Source: Thermoguttaceae bacterium (GTDB taxonomy: Bacteria > Planctomycetota > Planctomycetia > Pirellulales > Thermoguttaceae). Taken from it: a stretch of 64,000 bases of DNA. The position numbers were made by a program, and so were the translations under genes. This document shows, piece after piece, positions 1-8,208 of the stretch (its first letter is position 1; the number at the start of each line of letters is the position of its first letter). The stretch lies in assembly GCA_017436025.1 (NCBI GenBank), contig JAFSDX010000034.1, forward strand, positions 6,210-70,209. Reading direction: 5' to 3'. Under the pieces are notes generated by a model that ran no database searches, was not told the origin of the DNA, and saw nothing but the letters and a program-made list of their open reading frames with translations.

Positions 1-2915
1 GCTTCAACCAACTCGAAGCGACCGTCTGCGCCGCTCTCGACGTCGGCTCCCTCGCCGAAGCGGCTCGCGTCGCGAAAAACGAAAAGCTGCTCAACGAATA
101 TCAAACCCTAAACTTCGACCAACTCGAAGATTGGCGCGACGCTTGCCGAGCCCTCGGTCTGCCCGTCTCGCCGCCGCTCTCCTCCTCCAACGTCGCGCGA
201 ATCGACGATTTTTTAGAGTTTTACGGAAAACACGAAGCGCTTTTCGCCCGTCGCCGCTATCTCGCGCTTATCGGCGCCGACGCCTTGTCGCAGCTTAAAG
301 TCGTTCGCGATTTGCAACTCGTTTTTCCCGACTGTCCCATTTGGGATTCTCAAATTCGCATGCTCGAAGCGCTGAACGAACGGGAAATTCAAGCGTGGTA
401 CAAACGCGAAGACGATAAGTTGCAAAGCCTCTGGTCGCAAGATACGGAGGAAGCCGCGAATCGAAAAAAAGAAACGCTCGGAAAGTTGCAGGAAATCCTC
501 GCGACTCTCGAAAGTCCCGAACGCCTCGAGCCCGCCTCGCCCGAATTCCTCCGCAAGTTGCGCGTTACGTCTCGTAAACTGGAACAACAGATAGCGTTTT
601 ACGAAATGACCGAGGCCTACGCAGAGTGGCGGGAGGCCCTCAAAGTCCAACGCGCCGACCTTCCGGCGTTTGGCGACGCGTTGGCCAAAGCGTATCTTAA
701 ATGCCAACAACTCAAGATTAACGTTCCCTCCCGATACTCGCCCCAAGAGTTTGAAAAAGCCGGGCTGGCGCAAAAATATCATAACGCCCTCGAAAGCTTC
801 AAAGAGAAAGTAACGCGTTTTAGGAATTTGTTGCAAAACAACGACGCGACGCTCGAAGAGCAAACCGCCGCGTATAAAGCCGTCGAACTCGCCTACGAGA
901 TACTACAAACCGCCGCCAACAACGCGGCCGGCGTCGTCCAAAACTACGAAATCCCCAGTATCGACCAAGACCTCGTCGACGACTACGAAGCTCGCGTCGA
1001 CGCGGTCGAACGTCAAAAACTTCGCATACGCGTTTTATGCGTTTCCGCCGCGGTTCTGTTTTGCGCCTTGCTTTCGGTCGCGGTCTTTTTCATCGCTCGC
1101 CAAAAACACTTTAACAACGAAGCGCTCGCGGTCGCCGCCGCGCTCGAGGTTCAGCTCGACTCGTTCGAACGAAAAACGAACTACGCCGCTCTCGCGGAAG
1201 TCGAAAAAACGCTCGAGGAGTATTACGTCGTTAAGTCGCCGATTACGCAACGCTTGGCGTTTATCGAACAAGCGGAGCGTTGCCAAAAACTTCGCGACGC
1301 CGAAGACGAACGCCGCGCGCGGTTCCAGGACGACGTCGAAAAACTCCAAGCGATCCATAAAACCGAAAAAACGCGCCCCGATTTGCTCCAACGCGTCAAG
1401 GACGCCGCGTTCACCGCGCAAGAAAAAAAAGAATACCAAACGCTGAAAAAACGCGAAGACGAAATCCGCAAATCCAATACCGACGCTTATTTGCAACGTC
1501 TCGACAGCCTCGTCGACCAAAAAAACGCCTTGGCCAAGACTCAAATAAGCGACCTCGAAACGCGCCTCGCTAACATCCAAGAACTCCAAGACGAGTTGCA
1601 AAAACTCGACCAAGAGTTCGACGCTTCCGCTATTTCGCCCCGCGCGAAAGAACAAGGCGACAACTTCAAGTCAAGCCTCGCCGATTGGCGCGCGACGACG
1701 GAACTTTCGCTTAAACTACAAGGCGCCGTCGGCGACGCGAAGGAGTTCGAAACGACGCTAACTCGTTACCAAGACAACATTTCGGAAGACGCCTACGCAA
1801 GAGCGCTCGACGCGTTGCAACTCGTTCCCGCGTTCGACGCTTGGAACGATTTCGCGCAAACCGACGCGAAGAGCGGCGCTTGGACGCAAACCGCCGAAAA
1901 TTTCAAGAGCCGTCAAACGTCCCTCGCGCCGGCCCTCAACACGCTCTCCGAATTTTTGCCGGAAATTAACGACGTCAACGCGCGCTTCCAAACGCTGTCG
2001 AAACGTCAAGAGTTGACGCAAGAATTGAAACGCGTTTTCAAGTTTTGCCAACCGGAACTTTATGTTTTCGCCGATTTGAAAAACACCGTCTATTACTACT
2101 TAACGTCGACGCCTACGATCGCGTCGAAAAAATCGTCGGTCGAATACTGCGTTCAAATTGTCGACGGCGTCCCGAAGACCCAAGTTTTCGACACGGACAT
2201 TATCGAATCGAGCCAGTTCGCCTCCATCGAACGCGCGCCGCAATACGTCCTTTATCAAAAAATCCAAAAGTTGCCCGCCGTCCCCGCCGACTCCGATTGG
2301 TTCGATTTCGTCGAAGACGTCGTCGATACGTTAATCGTCAAAGCCGACGAGCAAACGCTCGACCCGGCGGCCCAAGCCGTTTTACTTAAACGTTTAGCGT
2401 CGGTGTTGAGCCAAGACCCCGATCTCGAATTTTTCGAAGAATGGCAAACCGCGTTGGACGACGTCGACGTCGGCGTCAACCTCTACGAATCGACGCAGGC
2501 GCTCCGCAAACTCCGCGAAACCGCGAACGACGTTTTGCCGCAACTCAAGGTCGCCTCCGCGGAAACCGGGTTGCGGAACGCTCGAAAGTCCGCTCAAAAT
2601 CTCGATCGCAGCCTCGCGTCTCTCGCTCCCTGCCGTTGGGTCGGGTTTGTCGACGTCGCCGATTCGACCGCTCGCCTCGCGTCGAACGACGACGCGACGC
2701 TCGAAGACGGAACGCTTTATATCGCCGAAGTTGTCGACAACTCGGTTAAAGCGCGAGTTTTCGGCAAAGTTCAAAACGGCCAAGCGACCGTAACCCCGCG
2801 CGTCGACTTCAAATCGCAACGCTGGAACCTCGTTTTCCTCCGCTCCAACGCCGCGAATTCGTCCCCAAGTCCAAAGGAAGCCTCCCTCGCTTCCGCCGCG
2901 CCTCGTTCGCTTTAA
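1..2915 (+). CDS. Large coiled-coil membrane protein, 5'-partial (N-terminus lies upstream of the window); no family recognised
   Basis: Frame 3 is open from nt 3 (FNQLEATVCAALDVG...) to the TAA at 2913-2915. The ORF track begins at an internal TTG (285), but no stop lies upstream. There is one hydrophobic TM segment (VLCVSAAVLFCALLSVAVFFIA, about nt 1030-1100). It is flanked by long E/K/Q/L/R-rich heptad-like stretches (e.g. LDSLVDQKNALAKTQISDLETRLANIQELQDELQKLDQEF). Same strand as the four genes downstream, with short gaps. Confidence 0.7.
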   Translation, partial: FNQLEATVCAALDVGSLAEAARVAKNEKLLNEYQTLNFDQLEDWRDACRALGLPVSPPLSSSNVARIDDFLEFYGKHEALFARRRYLALIGADALSQLKVVRDLQLVFPDCPIWDSQIRMLEALNEREIQAWYKREDDKLQSLWSQDTEEAANRKKETLGKLQEILATLESPERLEPASPEFLRKLRVTSRKLEQQIAFYEMTEAYAEWREALKVQRADLPAFGDALAKAYLKCQQLKINVPSRYSPQEFEKAGLAQKYHNALESFKEKVTRFRNLLQNNDATLEEQTAAYKAVELAYEILQTAANNAAGVVQNYEIPSIDQDLVDDYEARVDAVERQKLRIRVLCVSAAVLFCALLSVAVFFIARQKHFNNEALAVAAALEVQLDSFERKTNYAALAEVEKTLEEYYVVKSPITQRLAFIEQAERCQKLRDAEDERRARFQDDVEKLQAIHKTEKTRPDLLQRVKDAAFTAQEKKEYQTLKKREDEIRKSNTDAYLQRLDSLVDQKNALAKTQISDLETRLANIQELQDELQKLDQEFDASAISPRAKEQGDNFKSSLADWRATTELSLKLQGAVGDAKEFETTLTRYQDNISEDAYARALDALQLVPAFDAWNDFAQTDAKSGAWTQTAENFKSRQTSLAPALNTLSEFLPEINDVNARFQTLSKRQELTQELKRVFKFCQPELYVFADLKNTVYYYLTSTPTIASKKSSVEYCVQIVDGVPKTQVFDTDIIESSQFASIERAPQYVLYQKIQKLPAVPADSDWFDFVEDVVDTLIVKADEQTLDPAAQAVLLKRLASVLSQDPDLEFFEEWQTALDDVDVGVNLYESTQALRKLRETANDVLPQLKVASAETGLRNARKSAQNLDRSLASLAPCRWVGFVDVADSTARLASNDDATLEDGTLYIAEVVDNSVKARVFGKVQNGQATVTPRVDFKSQRWNLVFLRSNAANSSPSPKEASLASAAPRSL

Positions 2916-3008
2916 ACGACGCCGAACGCCCGCGCGTTTTCCCTTTCGACGTTCGACGCGACGCAGTTTCAACGTCGCTTAACCTTTATTTTTTCAAGCA
3001 GTTGCATT

Positions 3009-4040
3009 ATGAATTATTACCTTCAACTCCGCGGTCGCGCCTACGGTCCCTTCACCGCCGACAAAGTGCGCGTTATGTGTCAAAACGGCTCCGTAAACGC
3101 CGAGTCGCTCATTTCAACCGACAAACGCAACTGGCGCGAAGCCGGCTCGTTCCCCGAATTTTTCGACGCTCCGCAATCCGCCGTCAATACCGTTCCCCAG
3201 CAAACGCCGCCCGCCGTCCCGCCCGCGCCGGCGTTCTCTTCAAAGCCTTGCTGGTTCGTCAGTTACGACGGCAAAGAAGGTTTCGGCCCCTATTCCGCCC
3301 AAGCGATTTCCGACGCGGTCGCCTCGGGCAACGTCAACGCCGAAACGCTCGTTTGGCGTCAAGGCGAAACCGCTCGCCCAATGAGCGACGAACCGGAATT
3401 TTCAAGCCTCTTCGCGAAACCCGCGTCGACGTCGACAAACAACGCCGCGTCGAACCCGAATTTGACCTCGAACCTCGCGGAACAACTTCACCGAAGATAC
3501 CTCGGTTACTGGATTTCCTGGGCCCTCTTTTTCATCGTTCCGACTTTTGGATGGGCGCTCGCGGAACTGACGCCCGCCCTCTTCGAAGAAAGCCTTAGCG
3601 TACAGAATTTTTTAATGAAGTACGTCGTTACGCCGTGTCGATACGGAGCGCCGCTCGTTTGTTACGTCGTGCAAAAGATTTTCTTGCTGATGTTCGTCTA
3701 TTCGTTTTGGCGTTCGCTCCCCGCCGCCAACGCTCCGACGACGCCGGGCCCCGCTTGCGGTCTCCTTTTAGTTCCGTTTTTCTATTGGTATTGGAATTTT
3801 GTCGTGTTTTACCAAGGCACGATTTACGCAAACGCTTCCCTTAAAAAACTTGCGCCGGAAGTCGCGTCGCGAACGCAGGTATCCGAAACGCTCGCGCTCC
3901 TCTACGCAATCCTGGAACTCATTTGCATGCCGATAAGTTTGTGCCTTTCCTTCCCCCTCCTCGCTCAAATGCGAAACGTCGGCGCCGCGCTCGCCAAAGC
4001 GGAAGCGCAAGACTCCGACGACGCGTTTAACGTCGCGTAA
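3009..4040 (+). CDS. Membrane protein with two N-terminal GYF_2 (DUF4339)-like domains and a C-terminal multi-TM domain
   Basis: Two GYF_2-like modules: YYLQLRGRAYGPFTADKVRVMCQNGSVNAESLISTDKRNWREAGSFPEFF and WFVSYDGKEGFGPYSAQAISDAVASGNVNAETLVWRQGETARPMSDEPEF. They are separated by a Pro-rich linker. The C-terminal ~170 aa contain about 4 hydrophobic helices (WISWALFFIVPTFGWALA, LVCYVVQKIFLLMFVYSFW, LLLVPFFYWYWNFVVFY, LALLYAILELICMPISLCLSF). Confidence 0.75.
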   Translation: MNYYLQLRGRAYGPFTADKVRVMCQNGSVNAESLISTDKRNWREAGSFPEFFDAPQSAVNTVPQQTPPAVPPAPAFSSKPCWFVSYDGKEGFGPYSAQAISDAVASGNVNAETLVWRQGETARPMSDEPEFSSLFAKPASTSTNNAASNPNLTSNLAEQLHRRYLGYWISWALFFIVPTFGWALAELTPALFEESLSVQNFLMKYVVTPCRYGAPLVCYVVQKIFLLMFVYSFWRSLPAANAPTTPGPACGLLLVPFFYWYWNFVVFYQGTIYANASLKKLAPEVASRTQVSETLALLYAILELICMPISLCLSFPLLAQMRNVGAALAKAEAQDSDDAFNVA

Positions 4041-4151
4041 TTCCACCGTTTACCGCCGCGTCGGTAAAAACGACGCGTTGCGACGCCTTACGAAACGATC
4101 GACGTCGCGCCGCGTCGCGCTCCCTTGCCTCGCTTACCGTAACCCTTTGCA

Positions 4152-5045
4152 ATGAAACAGAATAGCAAATCGACAAAAATCTCTTGGTTGCGCGACGACT
4201 TCGAACGCCGTCTCGCTTTTCGCGGCGAACGTTACTTAAAAGTCGGAGCGCTCTCGTCCGGTCTTTTAGCGTGTTGCGCGTCGTTACTCTTTTATAGCGC
4301 GGTGTTTATCGCTCCCGCCTGCGCCGCGAAAGCGACTTTCACGGAGCGCGGTTTCATTCCGTACCCTATCGTTTTCCTTGGTTTTTGGACTTTTTTCCTG
4401 CTTTGGATTAAGACGCGAAAAATCAAATTGCAACGCAAACCGTTGCGGCTCGCGATTTTACCGGACGCGCCCAACTTTACGCTGACGGTCGCGACGGTCG
4501 ACGAGGTAACGCGCAAAATTTCGGAAAACGCCGAATCGCCGAAAGATTTTTTACTTTACCGCCGCGTTATGCAAACGCTCGCGCACCTTCGAAATTTAGG
4601 GCAAGTCTCCGAAGCCGACGCGCTTTTCCGTTCGCAAGCCGAGCGAGACGAGAACTTAAGCGACACGAGTTACGCGCTGATCAACGGATTTCTTTGGGCG
4701 ATTCCGATCCTCGGGTTCATCGGCACGGTTCTCGGCCTTTCCTCCGCGATCGCGAGTTTTAGCGACGTCTTAGCGGCTTCCGGCGACGCCGCGGAACTGA
4801 AACCCGCGTTAAAGCAAGTAACGGCGGGACTTTCGACGGCTTTCGAAACGACGTTTCTCGCGTTGGCCGTCGCTCTCGCCCTACAGATTTTTGCGACGTT
4901 CGTTCGCAAGTCGGAAGAAGAATTGCTCGACGATATTTCCGACTTCTGCGCGACGAACGTCGTTCTAAAATTACGCGTCGCCGTCCGCGAATTTCCCGCC
5001 CCGACGAACGCAAACGTCGACGCGACGTCGCCAACGCGAAAATAA
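4152..5045 (+). CDS. MotA/TolQ/ExbB proton-channel family protein
   Basis: Topology and C-terminal signature typical of the family: two N-terminal TM helices, a ~100-aa cytoplasmic loop, then FLWAIPILGFIGTVLGLSSAIASF ... LKQVTAGLSTAFETTFLALAVALALQIFATFV. Confidence 0.8.
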   Translation: MKQNSKSTKISWLRDDFERRLAFRGERYLKVGALSSGLLACCASLLFYSAVFIAPACAAKATFTERGFIPYPIVFLGFWTFFLLWIKTRKIKLQRKPLRLAILPDAPNFTLTVATVDEVTRKISENAESPKDFLLYRRVMQTLAHLRNLGQVSEADALFRSQAERDENLSDTSYALINGFLWAIPILGFIGTVLGLSSAIASFSDVLAASGDAAELKPALKQVTAGLSTAFETTFLALAVALALQIFATFVRKSEEELLDDISDFCATNVVLKLRVAVREFPAPTNANVDATSPTRK

Positions 5046-5090: not shown

Positions 5091-5903
5091 ATGCGTCGCA
5101 AGAAAAATCAGATTCCGTTTTCCCTATTCGCCTTCCAAGACGCGATCGCGTCCGTCTGCGGTTTCGTCGTTTTGATCGCCTTAATTTTAGCGCTCGAATT
5201 AACGAACCAAATTGTCGAGGAAGCCGCCCGGCCCGTTCCGTCCCCCGCCGCCCTTACCGACTTAACCAACGAAATCTCAACGCTTAAAAGCGACGTCGCG
5301 ACGCTTAAACAAACGTCGGAACTTTGGGACGAAATGTCGCGTCAAGCGTCGCGATCTCATTTTTCGCCCGAAAACGCCGAAGCCGAACTGCTCCAAGCCG
5401 AGCGTCGATTGGCCGAATCGTTGACGGAAAACGAACGCTTGCAAGCGCTTATCGCCAACGAAAACGAAACGAAAACAAGCCGCGACGAACTCCTTCGCGA
5501 AATGGAAAAACAAAAAGCGGAACTCGCCGACCTTGACGCGCAAATCGCTAACCTGCGACGCGAGCAAAGTTTAACTCGTTCCGCGTCGATTTATTACGCG
5601 TCGACGAACGACGTTCGAGAAACGCCTTGGTTAGTCGACGTCGCCGAACGCCGAATTATCGTTCGTTCGCTAAAGTCGGAGGGCGCCGCGCCCAAACGTC
5701 CCCTCGAATTTTCCGGACGCGCCGCCCCAAGCGGTTTCCTCTCTTGGGCGCGCCAACGAGACAAAAACGCGGAATATTTCGTTCTCGTCGTTCGTCCCTC
5801 CGGCGTCGCGTCTTACGACAACATACGCAACTCCTTAGAAAAAAACGGTTTCAAAATTGGAATCGATCTCGTCGGCGAAACGTCGACCGTCGAAATCGAT
5901 TGA
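5091..5903 (+). CDS. ExbD/TolR-like protein with a long coiled-coil insert between the TM helix and the C-terminal domain
   Basis: The N-terminal TM helix carries an Asp (FSLFAFQDAIASVCGFVVLIALILAL), as in ExbD/TolR/MotB. About 110 aa of heptad-like sequence follow (EISTLKSDVATLKQ...KAELADLDAQIANLRREQ). The C-terminal segment EYFVLVVRPSGVASYDNIRNSLEKNGFKIGIDLVGET resembles the ExbD periplasmic domain end (E. coli ...TVDYETLMKVMDTLHQAGYLKIGLVGEE). Starts 45 nt after the MotA/ExbB gene. Confidence 0.6.
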   Translation: MRRKKNQIPFSLFAFQDAIASVCGFVVLIALILALELTNQIVEEAARPVPSPAALTDLTNEISTLKSDVATLKQTSELWDEMSRQASRSHFSPENAEAELLQAERRLAESLTENERLQALIANENETKTSRDELLREMEKQKAELADLDAQIANLRREQSLTRSASIYYASTNDVRETPWLVDVAERRIIVRSLKSEGAAPKRPLEFSGRAAPSGFLSWARQRDKNAEYFVLVVRPSGVASYDNIRNSLEKNGFKIGIDLVGETSTVEID

Positions 5904-5918
5904 CGTCGGAGAAGACTA

Positions 5919-6836
5919 ATGCGACGTAAACGCCGCCCGCAAGACAGCTTAGAACTTTTCCTCGACGCGCTCTGCAATATGTTCGGCGCGTTCCTGTTTT
6001 TACTGCTTTTTATCGTTGTTCTTTTGCAAACAACTCGGCGCGAACTTAGCGAACAACGTCGCCAACACCCTTCGTATAACGAGTTAGCGTCGCTGACGGC
6101 GGAACGCGACGCTCTGACGACGGAGTGGAACGACTCGCTCGAACAGTCGCGGCGCCTCGCCTCTCTTCAAAACAAGATTCTTTCGCCGGAATTGGCGGCG
6201 ACAATTCAAAAAACGATACAAACCATTCAAAACCAACAAGAAACGGAAAACAAAAACGCGATTTTACAAGCTGAAATCGACGCGCGAAACGCCGCCGTAA
6301 ACGCGACGTTGCAAAACCGAGACCGCCTTCAAGCCGAAATCGAAACCAAACGCTTACAATTCAAGGAGTTAGAAAACCAAATCCAAGCGGAGAAGACCAA
6401 ACAAACGCGCCAAACTTCGCCGCCGCAACTGCGCTTCTCCGACAAAATCGAATTTCAGGTCGTCGTAAAGTACGGTCGGCTTTACTGTTTGAAACGTTTA
6501 AAAGGCGACGGCGCATATCCGGAACATGAATTCAACGACGAGGATTTTTACGTCGTCGCACGAGACGAACACGGCGCGATCGTTTCTCCTAACCCTAGGC
6601 GAGGAATCGACTTAAGCGCCGATCTAAACGAAATCGAAGAGGCGTTGTCGACGCGCTTCGCCGACGTAAAGGCAAGTCGTTATAAAATCGCGTTTATGGT
6701 GTGCGCGGATTCGTTCGCCGAGTTCAACGTCGCTCGCAACTACTTTAAGAACAACGGATACGACGTCCGAATTCTTATCGGAAAAACCGGACAACGCATT
6801 CTTGACCGAGGCGGTCGCAGCAAGGAAGCGCAATAA
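5919..6836 (+). CDS. Second ExbD/TolR-like protein with a coiled-coil insert (paralog-like partner of 5091..5903)
   Basis: The N-terminal TM helix carries an Asp (LELFLDALCNMFGAFLFLLLFIVVLL). About 120 aa of coiled-coil-like sequence follow (LQAEIDARNAAVNATLQNRDRLQAEIETKRLQFKELENQIQAEK). The C-terminal segment YKIAFMVCADSFAEFNVARNYFKNNGYDVRILIG is ExbD-like. Starts 15 nt after the preceding gene. Confidence 0.6.
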   Translation: MRRKRRPQDSLELFLDALCNMFGAFLFLLLFIVVLLQTTRRELSEQRRQHPSYNELASLTAERDALTTEWNDSLEQSRRLASLQNKILSPELAATIQKTIQTIQNQQETENKNAILQAEIDARNAAVNATLQNRDRLQAEIETKRLQFKELENQIQAEKTKQTRQTSPPQLRFSDKIEFQVVVKYGRLYCLKRLKGDGAYPEHEFNDEDFYVVARDEHGAIVSPNPRRGIDLSADLNEIEEALSTRFADVKASRYKIAFMVCADSFAEFNVARNYFKNNGYDVRILIGKTGQRILDRGGRSKEAQ

Positions 6837-6901: not shown

Positions 6902-8020
6902 TTAACGCAACCGACGCCGACGTTCGCCGCGCTCGTAATCGTCGCGACGCTCGGCCCAACCGCGAAAATGCTCGACATACTTCGCCTTGTAGTCCGGAAC
7001 GTAACGCTCCAACAACCGTTTCAACGGCGCGTCCTTTTGCAACCGCGCCGCTTCCGCCGAGGAAATCCCCGCTTGCGCCTCAGGTTGTAGCGAACGCAAA
7101 TAAAGCGCCAACACGCGTTGCGTATCCGGCGAATAATGAATCAAAAAATGCGTCCAAGCCCAAGACTCGCGATATTCGCGAATCCGCATTTGGTCGACCC
7201 GCGTCAATCTCTCAAGACGCGACAACGACGGCGGAGACGCAAAAAACGACGTCGCGTCGCTTTCGACCTTCTCTAAAAACGGATTGCTAAATCCGCGTTC
7301 CCCCGGCGGCGTCTCAAAATACTTCGCCAAACCTTCGTCGATCCAAATCGGAACGTTCCTAAGCGCGGCGTTTAGGTACGCGTGCACCATCTCGTGTCGC
7401 ACGTTCAAAATCATCTTTTCGTCGCGCCGCACCATCAAGACGCCCGGCTTGCCCGGTTCCTTGACGTACAACGCGGGCCGGTCGGTCGGAGCGCCGGGAA
7501 AATATTCGCAAATAAAGGCGATATAAGAGGTTCGGTCGCGAAAAAGGCAAAGCGAAATCTTCTCCGTCGACTCCGGAACGCCAAGATAACCGACCAAATC
7601 GTTCTGCAGTCGAACGATTTCCGCTTGCAAACCCGCCGTTTCTTCGAGCGGAAAATTCGACTCGCAAACAACCTTTCCAAGCGCGACCGAATAAGGCAGA
7701 AACTTTGTAAACGAAGGACTTAAATCAAGAGCGAAGGTCGAAGGAGCCGACGTTGACGCCGCGTCGTTTTCCGCGTCGTAATCGCCCGCTTCGTTCGCCT
7801 CTCCGTTCGGCGGAACATCCTTCTTAAACGCGTCGACGATCGTCGGCAACGGAATCTTGAAGTCGATCGCCCAAACGTCCGCAAATGTTGCCGTTAAAGC
7901 GGTTACGCTCGCCGCCGCGACGCAGAATCGCCGCCAAGCGCCGCATCGTTTCGGCGCGCTTGATTTTGCCGCCGTTTTCTCGCCGCGACCGTTCGCGCCT
8001 CTATCGTCCTTTTCGCTCAT
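6902..8020 (-). CDS. Exported HExxH metallopeptidase-like protein (DUF1570-like)
   Basis: HExxH motif in VRHEMVHAYLNAAL, with a signal/anchor segment (WRRFCVAAASVTALTATFA). I prefer the ATG at 8020 (MSEKDD...). The ORF track start at 8137 is an alternative. Confidence 0.55.
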   Translation of the reverse strand: MSEKDDRGANGRGEKTAAKSSAPKRCGAWRRFCVAAASVTALTATFADVWAIDFKIPLPTIVDAFKKDVPPNGEANEAGDYDAENDAASTSAPSTFALDLSPSFTKFLPYSVALGKVVCESNFPLEETAGLQAEIVRLQNDLVGYLGVPESTEKISLCLFRDRTSYIAFICEYFPGAPTDRPALYVKEPGKPGVLMVRRDEKMILNVRHEMVHAYLNAALRNVPIWIDEGLAKYFETPPGERGFSNPFLEKVESDATSFFASPPSLSRLERLTRVDQMRIREYRESWAWTHFLIHYSPDTQRVLALYLRSLQPEAQAGISSAEAARLQKDAPLKRLLERYVPDYKAKYVEHFRGWAERRDDYERGERRRRLR

Positions 8021-8208
8021 TTTTCTCAATTGTTTTGCAATAAACGCAACTCTTTTCTTTTCGCAACTTAAAAGCGACGCGAACGTTCCAACGTCGCGCC
8101 GCTCCAGTATTATACCTAAAAGGCTCGAAACGCGCAACCCCGTTTCGCGACGACGTTCCTTCGCCGTTACTCCCGTCGTCGCAAGGGTTGCGCCGTTTCC
8201 TTTCGCCG

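Follow-up and report, generated by a model that had tools for sequence, protein, structure and literature searches.

Ion-driven motors of the 5:2 type (MotAB, ExbBD, TolQR, GldLM, ZorAB and AglRQS) each represent another way to turn proton flow into work. The canonical ExbD and TolR proteins are about 140 aa long with a short linker, and the periplasmic domain of ExbD (PDB 2PFU) is a five-stranded sheet that carries two helices, both on the same face; in Ton operons ExbD typically follows a MotA/ExbB-family gene, and tandem ExbD paralogs are typical as well. The Myxococcus AglR-AglQ-AglS motor has two different TolR-like axle subunits (AglQ and AglS, both short ExbD/TolR homologs), and in GldL5M2 the axle subunit GldM itself spans far across the periplasm via four globular domains, with its charge pair arranged differently. 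Here we describe two tandem genes, D and E, in a stretch of 64,000 nucleotides (nt) from a Thermoguttaceae bacterium (assembly GCA_017436025.1, contig JAFSDX010000034.1, positions 6,210-70,209 of the forward strand), which as a whole we call the window. The genes follow a gene of the MotA/TolQ/ExbB family, C, and their products are best described as a novel pair of B-type subunits of a MotA/ExbB-family motor inside a planctomycete GAP1-N2 GTPase system.

With ExbD and TolR (ExbB5D2, TolQ5R2) the two proteins share a lone N-terminal transmembrane (TM) helix, predicted to run N-in, in which an Asp towards the cytoplasmic end is conserved; a gene position directly after a MotA/TolQ/ExbB-family gene; a small alpha/beta C-terminal head whose predicted strands and helices follow each other in a similar order; and occurrence as tandem paralogs, as is common in Ton operons. 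They differ in length (270 and 305 aa rather than about 140 aa) and in that a heptad-periodic stalk of about 110 residues (111-112 helical residues between TM helix and head) replaces the short linker; furthermore, D and E form an obligate pair, their TM helices also carry a conserved Gln (D) or Asn (E), and their context is a GTPase/GAP1-N2 cluster without TonB, TolA or Pal. As in AglQ and AglS there would be two different axle subunits, although those are short ExbD/TolR homologs, and as in GldM the axle would have its own periplasmic reach, provided by a coiled coil and not by four globular domains. Zorya ZorAB is alike in being a MotA/MotB-type 5:2 unit in a multi-gene system outside motility and transport, with a long coiled coil as a defining element; however, the Zorya coiled-coil tail is cytoplasmic and belongs to the A subunit, whereas that of D and E would be periplasmic and belong to the B-type subunits, ZorB has a peptidoglycan-binding domain, and ZorA models are matched only weakly by C.

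Two systems known from the literature come closer in other respects. TolQ-like genes without tolR or exbD nearby have been found with paired, mostly heterologous vWA proteins that have a predicted Asp-bearing 'transpore helix' (TPH) in the pentamer (PMC12204202), and this is a precedent for non-ExbD, Asp-bearing axle proteins beside TolQ-like genes. D and E resemble these TPH-vWA proteins in being non-ExbD bitopic proteins, mostly heterologous pairs in the published case, with a predicted Asp transpore-helix axle and no tolR or exbD nearby, but they have a coiled coil and a small alpha/beta head where the others have a periplasmic vWA domain; the TPH-vWA systems are found mainly in Proteobacteria and Verrucomicrobia, and no link to GTPase/GAP1 genes is described for them. 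Kaur, Burroughs, Iyer and Aravind (2020; PMC7159879) described DO-GTPase systems with GAP1-N2 proteins, including a planctomycete variant with a GYF-GYF-TM protein; the TRAFAC DO-GTPase of these systems has a Walker-B Glu and N-terminal Zn ribbons.

D and E have one architecture. Four or five basic residues (N-termini MRRKK and MRRKRR) precede the single strongly hydrophobic TM segment of each protein, which argues for an N-in, C-out orientation. In AlphaFold2 models made from the family alignments (mean pLDDT 89 for D and 81 for E) the TM helix is followed by long helices and then by the head; pLDDT is mostly 80-96 in the helical regions (D 52-162, E 53-164) and mostly 90-98 in ten-residue blocks of the D head, with lower values near residues 161-170 and 191-200. 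The helical regions consist to 62% of E, Q, K, R, L and A and hold no Gly at all. Their family-averaged hydrophobicity has a dominant period of 3.45-3.55 residues, with a power at 3.5 above that of 99.4-100% of column shuffles in every segment of D and E tested, and this significant heptad periodicity, together with the helical composition, confirms a coiled coil. In both proteins the helical region is broken near residue 90, a conserved feature that in E coincides with a conserved S-P-E. A first-pass annotation, made by a model from the sequence letters alone, had described a basic stretch and an Asp-containing TM helix at the start of both proteins and a long heptad-like region rich in E, Q, L, K and R behind it; these descriptions hold, and every peptide it quoted is present in the translations of 5091-5903 (D) and 5919-6836 (E).

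The D family is large. An exhaustive, motif-independent HMMER profile search of 1.84 billion representatives returned 4024 hits at E<=1e-3, 2013 at E<=1e-10 and 665 at E<=1e-30; at 50% identity the family comprises at least 665 clusters, and it has no Pfam match. The best 150 hits are all 257-297 aa long and match end to end, and in their alignment F15 is found in 150/150 sequences and Gln at Q16 and Asp at D17 in 149/150 each. The Asp at D16 of E is found in each of 37 sequences, and among 84 orthologs gathered without the use of any E motif, D16 and N20 are each conserved in 99%. The first-pass annotation had staked its interpretation on the TM Asp being conserved in orthologs, and in both proteins it is. 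A word-indexed search had found 15 relatives of D and 7 of E, those with names being Thermoguttaceae metagenome-assembled genomes (MAGs); relatives of E rise to 46 by profile search.

That the two proteins are distant paralogs is seen in a full-length hhalign comparison of D with E (probability 98.5%, E=2.4e-15), and also when the C-terminal domains (88.7%, E=2.6e-6) or the N-termini (E=3e-4) are compared alone. The annotation had called them two distinct paralogs, with which this comparison agrees. The stalk behaves like a ruler, its length being conserved while its sequence is not: in D the spacing from L37 to P179 has a median of 138 residues (5-95% range 135-148) and the mean top-residue frequency of the stalk region is 0.31, versus 0.72 in the N-terminal 40 residues, and in E the span from the Asp to the PQL motif has a median of 152 residues (5-95% range 148-156). 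In large outliers the D and E spans shift jointly (130/115 in L030, 178/170 in L069, 168/159 in L025 and 165/159 in L071). The Pearson correlation of the spans is 0.72, and as evidence for a heterodimer all this is suggestive only.

The partner gene, C, matches PF01618 above the curated cutoff, and WAIPILGFIGTV.GLS.AI and GL..AFETT are kept in the last two of its TM helices (TM3 and TM4) across 68 orthologs; judged by its sequence, C is a bona fide MotA/ExbB-family A-type subunit with its channel motifs intact. D begins 46 nt after the C open reading frame (ORF), and E 16 nt after the D stop. A phmmer search of the window and loci found no canonical ExbD or TolR, and no MotB-like gene lies in the cluster either, so that D and E are the sole candidates for the axle: they adjoin an A-type gene with conserved channel helices, and no rival B-type gene is present.

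The reading best supported by these observations, and one we hold to be moderately probable, makes D and E the heterodimeric axle, with a built-in periplasmic stalk of conserved length, of a 5:2-type MotA/ExbB motor. The axle role follows from the A-type identity of C, from D and E alone having a single TM helix with a conserved acidic residue, and from the lack of a canonical B subunit; the heterodimer follows from strict 1:1 co-occurrence, paralogy and parallel architecture. Both would be bitopic proteins of the inner membrane, N-in and C-out, and one D and one E would insert their Asp-bearing TM helices into a pentamer of C, giving a proton-driven motor of the 5:2 type with a heterodimeric axle in which protons would be coupled through D17 and D16. 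Between these Asp residues and the periplasmic end of the TM helix lie 15-20 hydrophobic residues, which is the depth known for D25 of ExbD, D23 of TolR and D32 of MotB. Beyond the membrane the chains would form a heptad-periodic stalk of some 110 residues, about 16 nm long if fully extended (111 residues x 0.148 nm), that would carry the paired, related alpha/beta heads into the periplasm, where they may be coupled mechanically or by signalling to the cytoplasmic GTPase/GAP1 module. The motor would then be one module of the conserved cluster, several member proteins of which have large periplasmic parts. The first-pass annotation had proposed a stator subunit that itself carries the long reach, and a heterodimer; given the pairing, the MotA/ExbB-family neighbour, the TM Asp and the length-conserved stalk, this part of its proposal is reasonable, while the part that assigned the proteins to ExbD/TolR found no support (see below).

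Several points weigh against this reading. The architecture of D and E, their conservation, paralogy and strict pairing, and their linkage to C are observed, whereas stoichiometry and insertion into C are drawn from context. In some lineages 1-3 kb of additional genes separates C from D, or C is encoded on the opposite strand; covariation of the stalks is weak beyond the few outliers (Spearman 0.25, p=0.025), and four loci show D lengthened by about 10 residues without any change in E. The break near residue 90 could mean a folded-back helical bundle and not an extended stalk. Finally, no significant sequence, profile or fold match ties D or E to ExbD, TolR or MotB, and even the N-terminal parts, aligned to ExbD with hhalign, gave only P~0.27.

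The phylogenetic distribution of the pair was surveyed with a D motif in one genome per Genome Taxonomy Database (GTDB) species, and six-frame ORFs of all loci were searched with purpose-built profiles for synteny. The survey picked out 207 species genomes, a lower bound because the motif is found in only 126 of the 150 best members of the D family. All 79 loci retained are labelled Planctomycetota (Thermoguttaceae, Pirellulales, Lacipirellulaceae, Planctomycetaceae, Schlesneria, Blastopirellula, and MAGs labelled Ca. Kuenenia) except for one gut bin labelled Paratractidigestivibacter. That bin, nominally actinomycetotal (L063, CAVGEG010000059.1), holds a full cluster of the Thermoguttaceae type and is probably a mis-binned gut planctomycete contig. 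E lies immediately 3' of D in 79/79 loci, and C just upstream of D in nearly all of these; in three loci C has the reverse orientation, and the exceptional C-D arrangements include those of L020, L021 and L085.

The commonest gene order, which is also that of the window's organism, is GTPase, GAP1, A, GYF (B in the window), C, D and E (Table 1); in most loci the GTPase gene precedes GAP1. Several Thermoguttaceae have a rotated version of this order and an extra small protein. The latter, of about 180 aa (L003 9044-9595 and homologs), is encoded between E and the GTPase and comprises a TM helix, a linker rich in Pro and a C-terminal helix that is conserved; the window's cluster lacks it, and one may speculate that its Pro-rich segment, and those beside the GAP1 TM helix, could be ligands of the GYF domains. 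Five Thermoguttaceae loci (L012, L014, L019, L022 and L027) have two systems in tandem, complete or nearly so, in which a protein with a TM helix and low-complexity sequence, related to the small component (183 aa), precedes the second D-E pair in place of a MotA-like gene of its own. The extra genes found between C and D in other lineages (for example L029 6842-9905 and L041 9032-9949) encode bitopic proteins in which the TM helix and a linker of low complexity are followed by a periplasmic domain that varies: vWA (E=3e-8), squalene-hopene-cyclase-like (sub-threshold), or an unassigned one without a Pfam match.

Table 1. Genes of the cluster that lie within the window, and the predicted parts of D and E (positions in the window)
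Feature	Position	Strand	Description
Gene A, 3' part	1..2915	+	frame 3 open from base 3; full gene 1009 aa on contigs with identical D
Gene B	3009..4040	+	two GYF_2 domains (Pfam E=2.1e-18, two stretches), then TM-rich C-terminal region
Gene C	4152..5045	+	297 aa; MotA/TolQ/ExbB-family channel subunit; 4 predicted TM; PF01618 E=2.6e-10
Gene D	5091..5903	+	270 aa; basic N-terminus, TM helix with Q16-D17, coiled coil, alpha/beta head
D TM helix, residues 13-46	5127..5228	+	AlphaFold2 helix; Asp17 codon 5139-5141
D coiled-coil stalk, residues 52-162	5244..5576	+	AlphaFold2 helices 52-88 and 93-162; break at about 89-92
D C-terminal alpha/beta domain, residues 166-270	5586..5900	+	AlphaFold2, b-b-b-a-b-a-b-b
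Gene E	5919..6836	+	305 aa; D paralog, identical architecture
E TM helix, residues 10-48	5946..6062	+	AlphaFold2 helix; Asp16 codon 5964-5966
E coiled-coil stalk, residues 53-164	6075..6410	+	AlphaFold2 helices 53-87 and 90-164
E C-terminal domain, beta-rich plus alpha/beta, residues 172-304	6432..6830	+	AlphaFold2

The first-pass annotation had missed the GTPase/GAP1-N2 context of the pair, the cluster of which starts beyond the window: the GTPase and GAP1-N2 genes lie outside, to its left, and gene A itself runs off the left end, since its reading frame, listed as 285-2915, is in fact open as far back as base 3. On contigs with an identical D, A is preceded by a GAP1-N2/GAP1-M protein of 1158 or 1187 aa, and this by a 446-aa protein. 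A is bitopic, with a helical cytoplasmic N-terminal half, one TM helix and about 600 periplasmic residues; it has no Pfam match and is homologous to a 964-aa protein of the cluster in L003 (E=4e-28). In L003 the counterpart of the 446-aa protein, a putative GTPase of 435 aa, has N-terminal CxxC pairs, the Walker A motif GAPGSGKS, DNAGE with the Walker-B Glu, and TKCD, features that agree with the published account of the DO-GTPase (PMC7159879), and matches Pfam DO-GTPase2 weakly (E=0.048, below the cutoff); the GAP1 protein of the same locus matches PF20013 (E=1.6e-20) and PF20014 (E=3.2e-11). Both GAP1-N2 plus GAP1-M and the planctomycete GYF-GYF-TM components are present, and the cluster is the planctomycete GAP1-N2-type 'DO-GTPase' system of PMC7159879, with which it shares the TM protein with GAP1-N2 and GAP1-M, the GYF-GYF-TM protein and, judged by sequence motifs, a putative Zn-ribbon GTPase with Walker-B Glu. 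It differs in the putative C-D-E motor module, which is not part of that description as given in the paper's text and one supplement file; MotA, ExbB, TolQ and ExbD do not occur in these, and to that extent the module adds to the published description of the system. Literature searches returned no characterised planctomycete MotA/GTPase system, no essentiality data and no experimental work on GAP1-N2/DO-GTPase systems.

Some observations on the surroundings of the cluster may be recorded here. The GAP1-N2 protein of the window's organism has a long low-complexity periplasmic region rich in Ser, Thr, Glu and Lys, with near-identical repeats, and differs between samples (L005, L006 and L007, ~1100-4674), being of 1158 aa, of 1187 aa, or split into ORFs of 236 and 449 aa. 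Convergent with E, at 6902-8137 of the window on the minus strand, lies a gene for a DUF1570 protein (Pfam E=4e-5) with an HExxH-like HEMVH motif and a weak Peptidase_MA_2 match, by its sequence a putative secreted zinc peptidase; this neighbour is kept in contigs of the same organism and elsewhere is outside the conserved cluster. The G+C content is about 0.53-0.58 in positions 1-24000 of the window versus about 0.57-0.64 in the rest (28000-64000), a shift that could reflect a genomic island, an assembly join or ordinary variation. No RNA runs contain the sequence, and that of the window was found in gut-metagenome DNA runs only.

The first-pass annotation had described D and E as ExbD/TolR-like proteins with an insert, that is, as true members of that family (PF02472) that have gained a coiled coil between their TM helix and a periplasmic domain of ExbD type; it proposed alignment to ExbD/TolR profiles as a check, and held that the claim would fail if the C-terminal domains had no HMM or structural similarity to that family. 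The element order of the predicted D head, b-b-[b]-a-b-a-b, is collinear with that of the ExbD domain, and the gene position and tandem paralogy are typical of Ton operons, but the alignments, run with hhalign and Pfam, gave nothing significant. PF02472 matches neither D nor E, nor 15 members of the D family, nor the isolated C-terminal domains (the E. coli ExbD and TolR controls match it at 4.6e-30 and 8.1e-22), and Pfam, NCBIfam and PADLOC scans of the same set returned coiled-coil noise only, with no Pfam or NCBIfam match to OmpA/MotB and no PADLOC match to ZorB; the N-terminal part of E (TM helix plus coiled coil) weakly resembles NF006544 (E=0.002, far below the cutoff). Searches of all PDB sequences with D and E by phmmer and profile hmmsearch likewise yielded coiled coils only; the E. 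coli ExbD sequence aligns with PDB 6tyi across residues 1-141 at E=4e-89. In hhalign, a family alignment against a single ExbD sequence gave nothing, and both families (full-length, N-terminal and C-terminal) against a 76-sequence ExbD/TolR alignment, drawn from 80 ExbD relatives collected in metagenomes, gave P = 0.09-0.28 and probabilities <1%; a scan of viral contigs for further ExbD relatives added one fragment only. The annotation had likened the C-terminal strings of both proteins to the ExbD terminus, and hhalign does independently pick the same piece in D and E, placing the last helix and a G-aromatic residue on ExbD helix 2 (YETLMKVMDTLHQAGY), but at P = 0.09-0.18 and a probability <1% the likeness is a hint in the sequences that does not rise above chance. 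As to fold, full-length, uncropped models were compared with the PDB by Foldseek, for which reason TM(query) values are uninformative: for D, uS11, YqgF, Ppx/GppA and an IS110-type transposase core lead (E 6e-4 to 1e-2, TM(target) ~0.4-0.5) and no ExbD or TolR chain is among the top 50 hits, and for E nothing is significant, although the ExbD chains 8vgd_B (rank 31) and 8vgc_A (rank 44) are retrieved at E~1 with TM(target) of 0.60 and 0.54. The predicted head appears to be a generic two-layer alpha/beta sandwich, with an element order compatible with ExbD but not assignable to the ExbD family. HMM and structural similarity to ExbD/TolR thus appears to be essentially wanting in the C-terminal domains, membership of D and E in that family is not supported, and we regard true homology with an inserted coiled coil as unlikely. 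More improbable still, in our judgement, is a scaffolding role, in which D and E, as a heterodimer like PilN/PilO, GspL/GspM or FtsB/FtsL, would stand outside the MotA/ExbB pentamer and organise the periplasmic parts of the GAP1/A complex. The architecture does match, in that each of the tandem paralogs combines a TM helix and a coiled coil with an alpha/beta head, and there are sub-threshold matches, at the level of coiled coils, to DivIC (best E=0.059) and FtsL (0.095) models; however, a scaffold would leave the near-invariant TM Asp, with its Gln or Asn, unexplained and the MotA/ExbB protein of the cluster without an axle subunit, and there is no Pfam match to PilN/PilO and none of PilN, PilO, GspM, DivIC or FtsL in the Foldseek top 50.

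Compatible with a heterodimeric axle is a further proposal, concerning the cluster as a whole: that it is an anti-phage conflict system in which C-D-E, like ZorAB of Zorya, would act as a sensor of envelope perturbation or as a membrane-depolarising effector, and not as a housekeeping motor of the envelope. The GAP1-N2/DO-GTPase/GYF-TM context fits PMC7159879, in which GAP1-N2 systems were proposed to function in conflict, and also in favour are the variable bitopic proteins inserted in some lineages (TM plus vWA, TM plus SQHop-cyclase-like), the tandem duplication of whole systems in some Thermoguttaceae and the weak match of C to ZorA (PADLOC E=1e-4, NCBIfam 0.0055). Yet the order of the core genes and the lengths of their proteins are conserved across orders of Planctomycetia, which is unusual for defence islands; there is no recognisable nuclease or toxic effector; PADLOC called no defence system, its ZorA matches being weak only; and no phage or mobile-element context is found beside the cluster within the window. 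We think this proposal rather doubtful, and the conserved core, without a recognisable toxic effector or PADLOC match, would be in keeping with a lineage-specific envelope machine no less than with a conflict system.

Taken furthest, the heterodimeric axle leads to a tentative proposal, which we put forward as possible although somewhat short of an even chance: a previously undescribed class of proton-driven 5:2-type motor, in which an obligate heterodimer of the two paralogs would serve as the axle and as a length-calibrated periplasmic drive shaft, a coiled coil of about 16 nm, hard-wired to a GTPase/GAP1-N2 switch in an envelope-spanning machine of the Planctomycetota. If D and E do form such an axle, the long reach of the motor would be built into a heterodimeric coiled coil, and not into a separate TonB or TolA or, as in Zorya, the tail of the A subunit; ion-motive force would be linked to GTPase signalling, which may serve Zorya-like sensing of invasion or an envelope process specific to planctomycetes. 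With C-D-E, a candidate energy-coupling or effector module is now attached to the GAP1-N2/DO-GTPase systems, making them experimentally approachable, and a large family of proteins that Pfam does not cover is placed in a phylum with unusual envelope biology.

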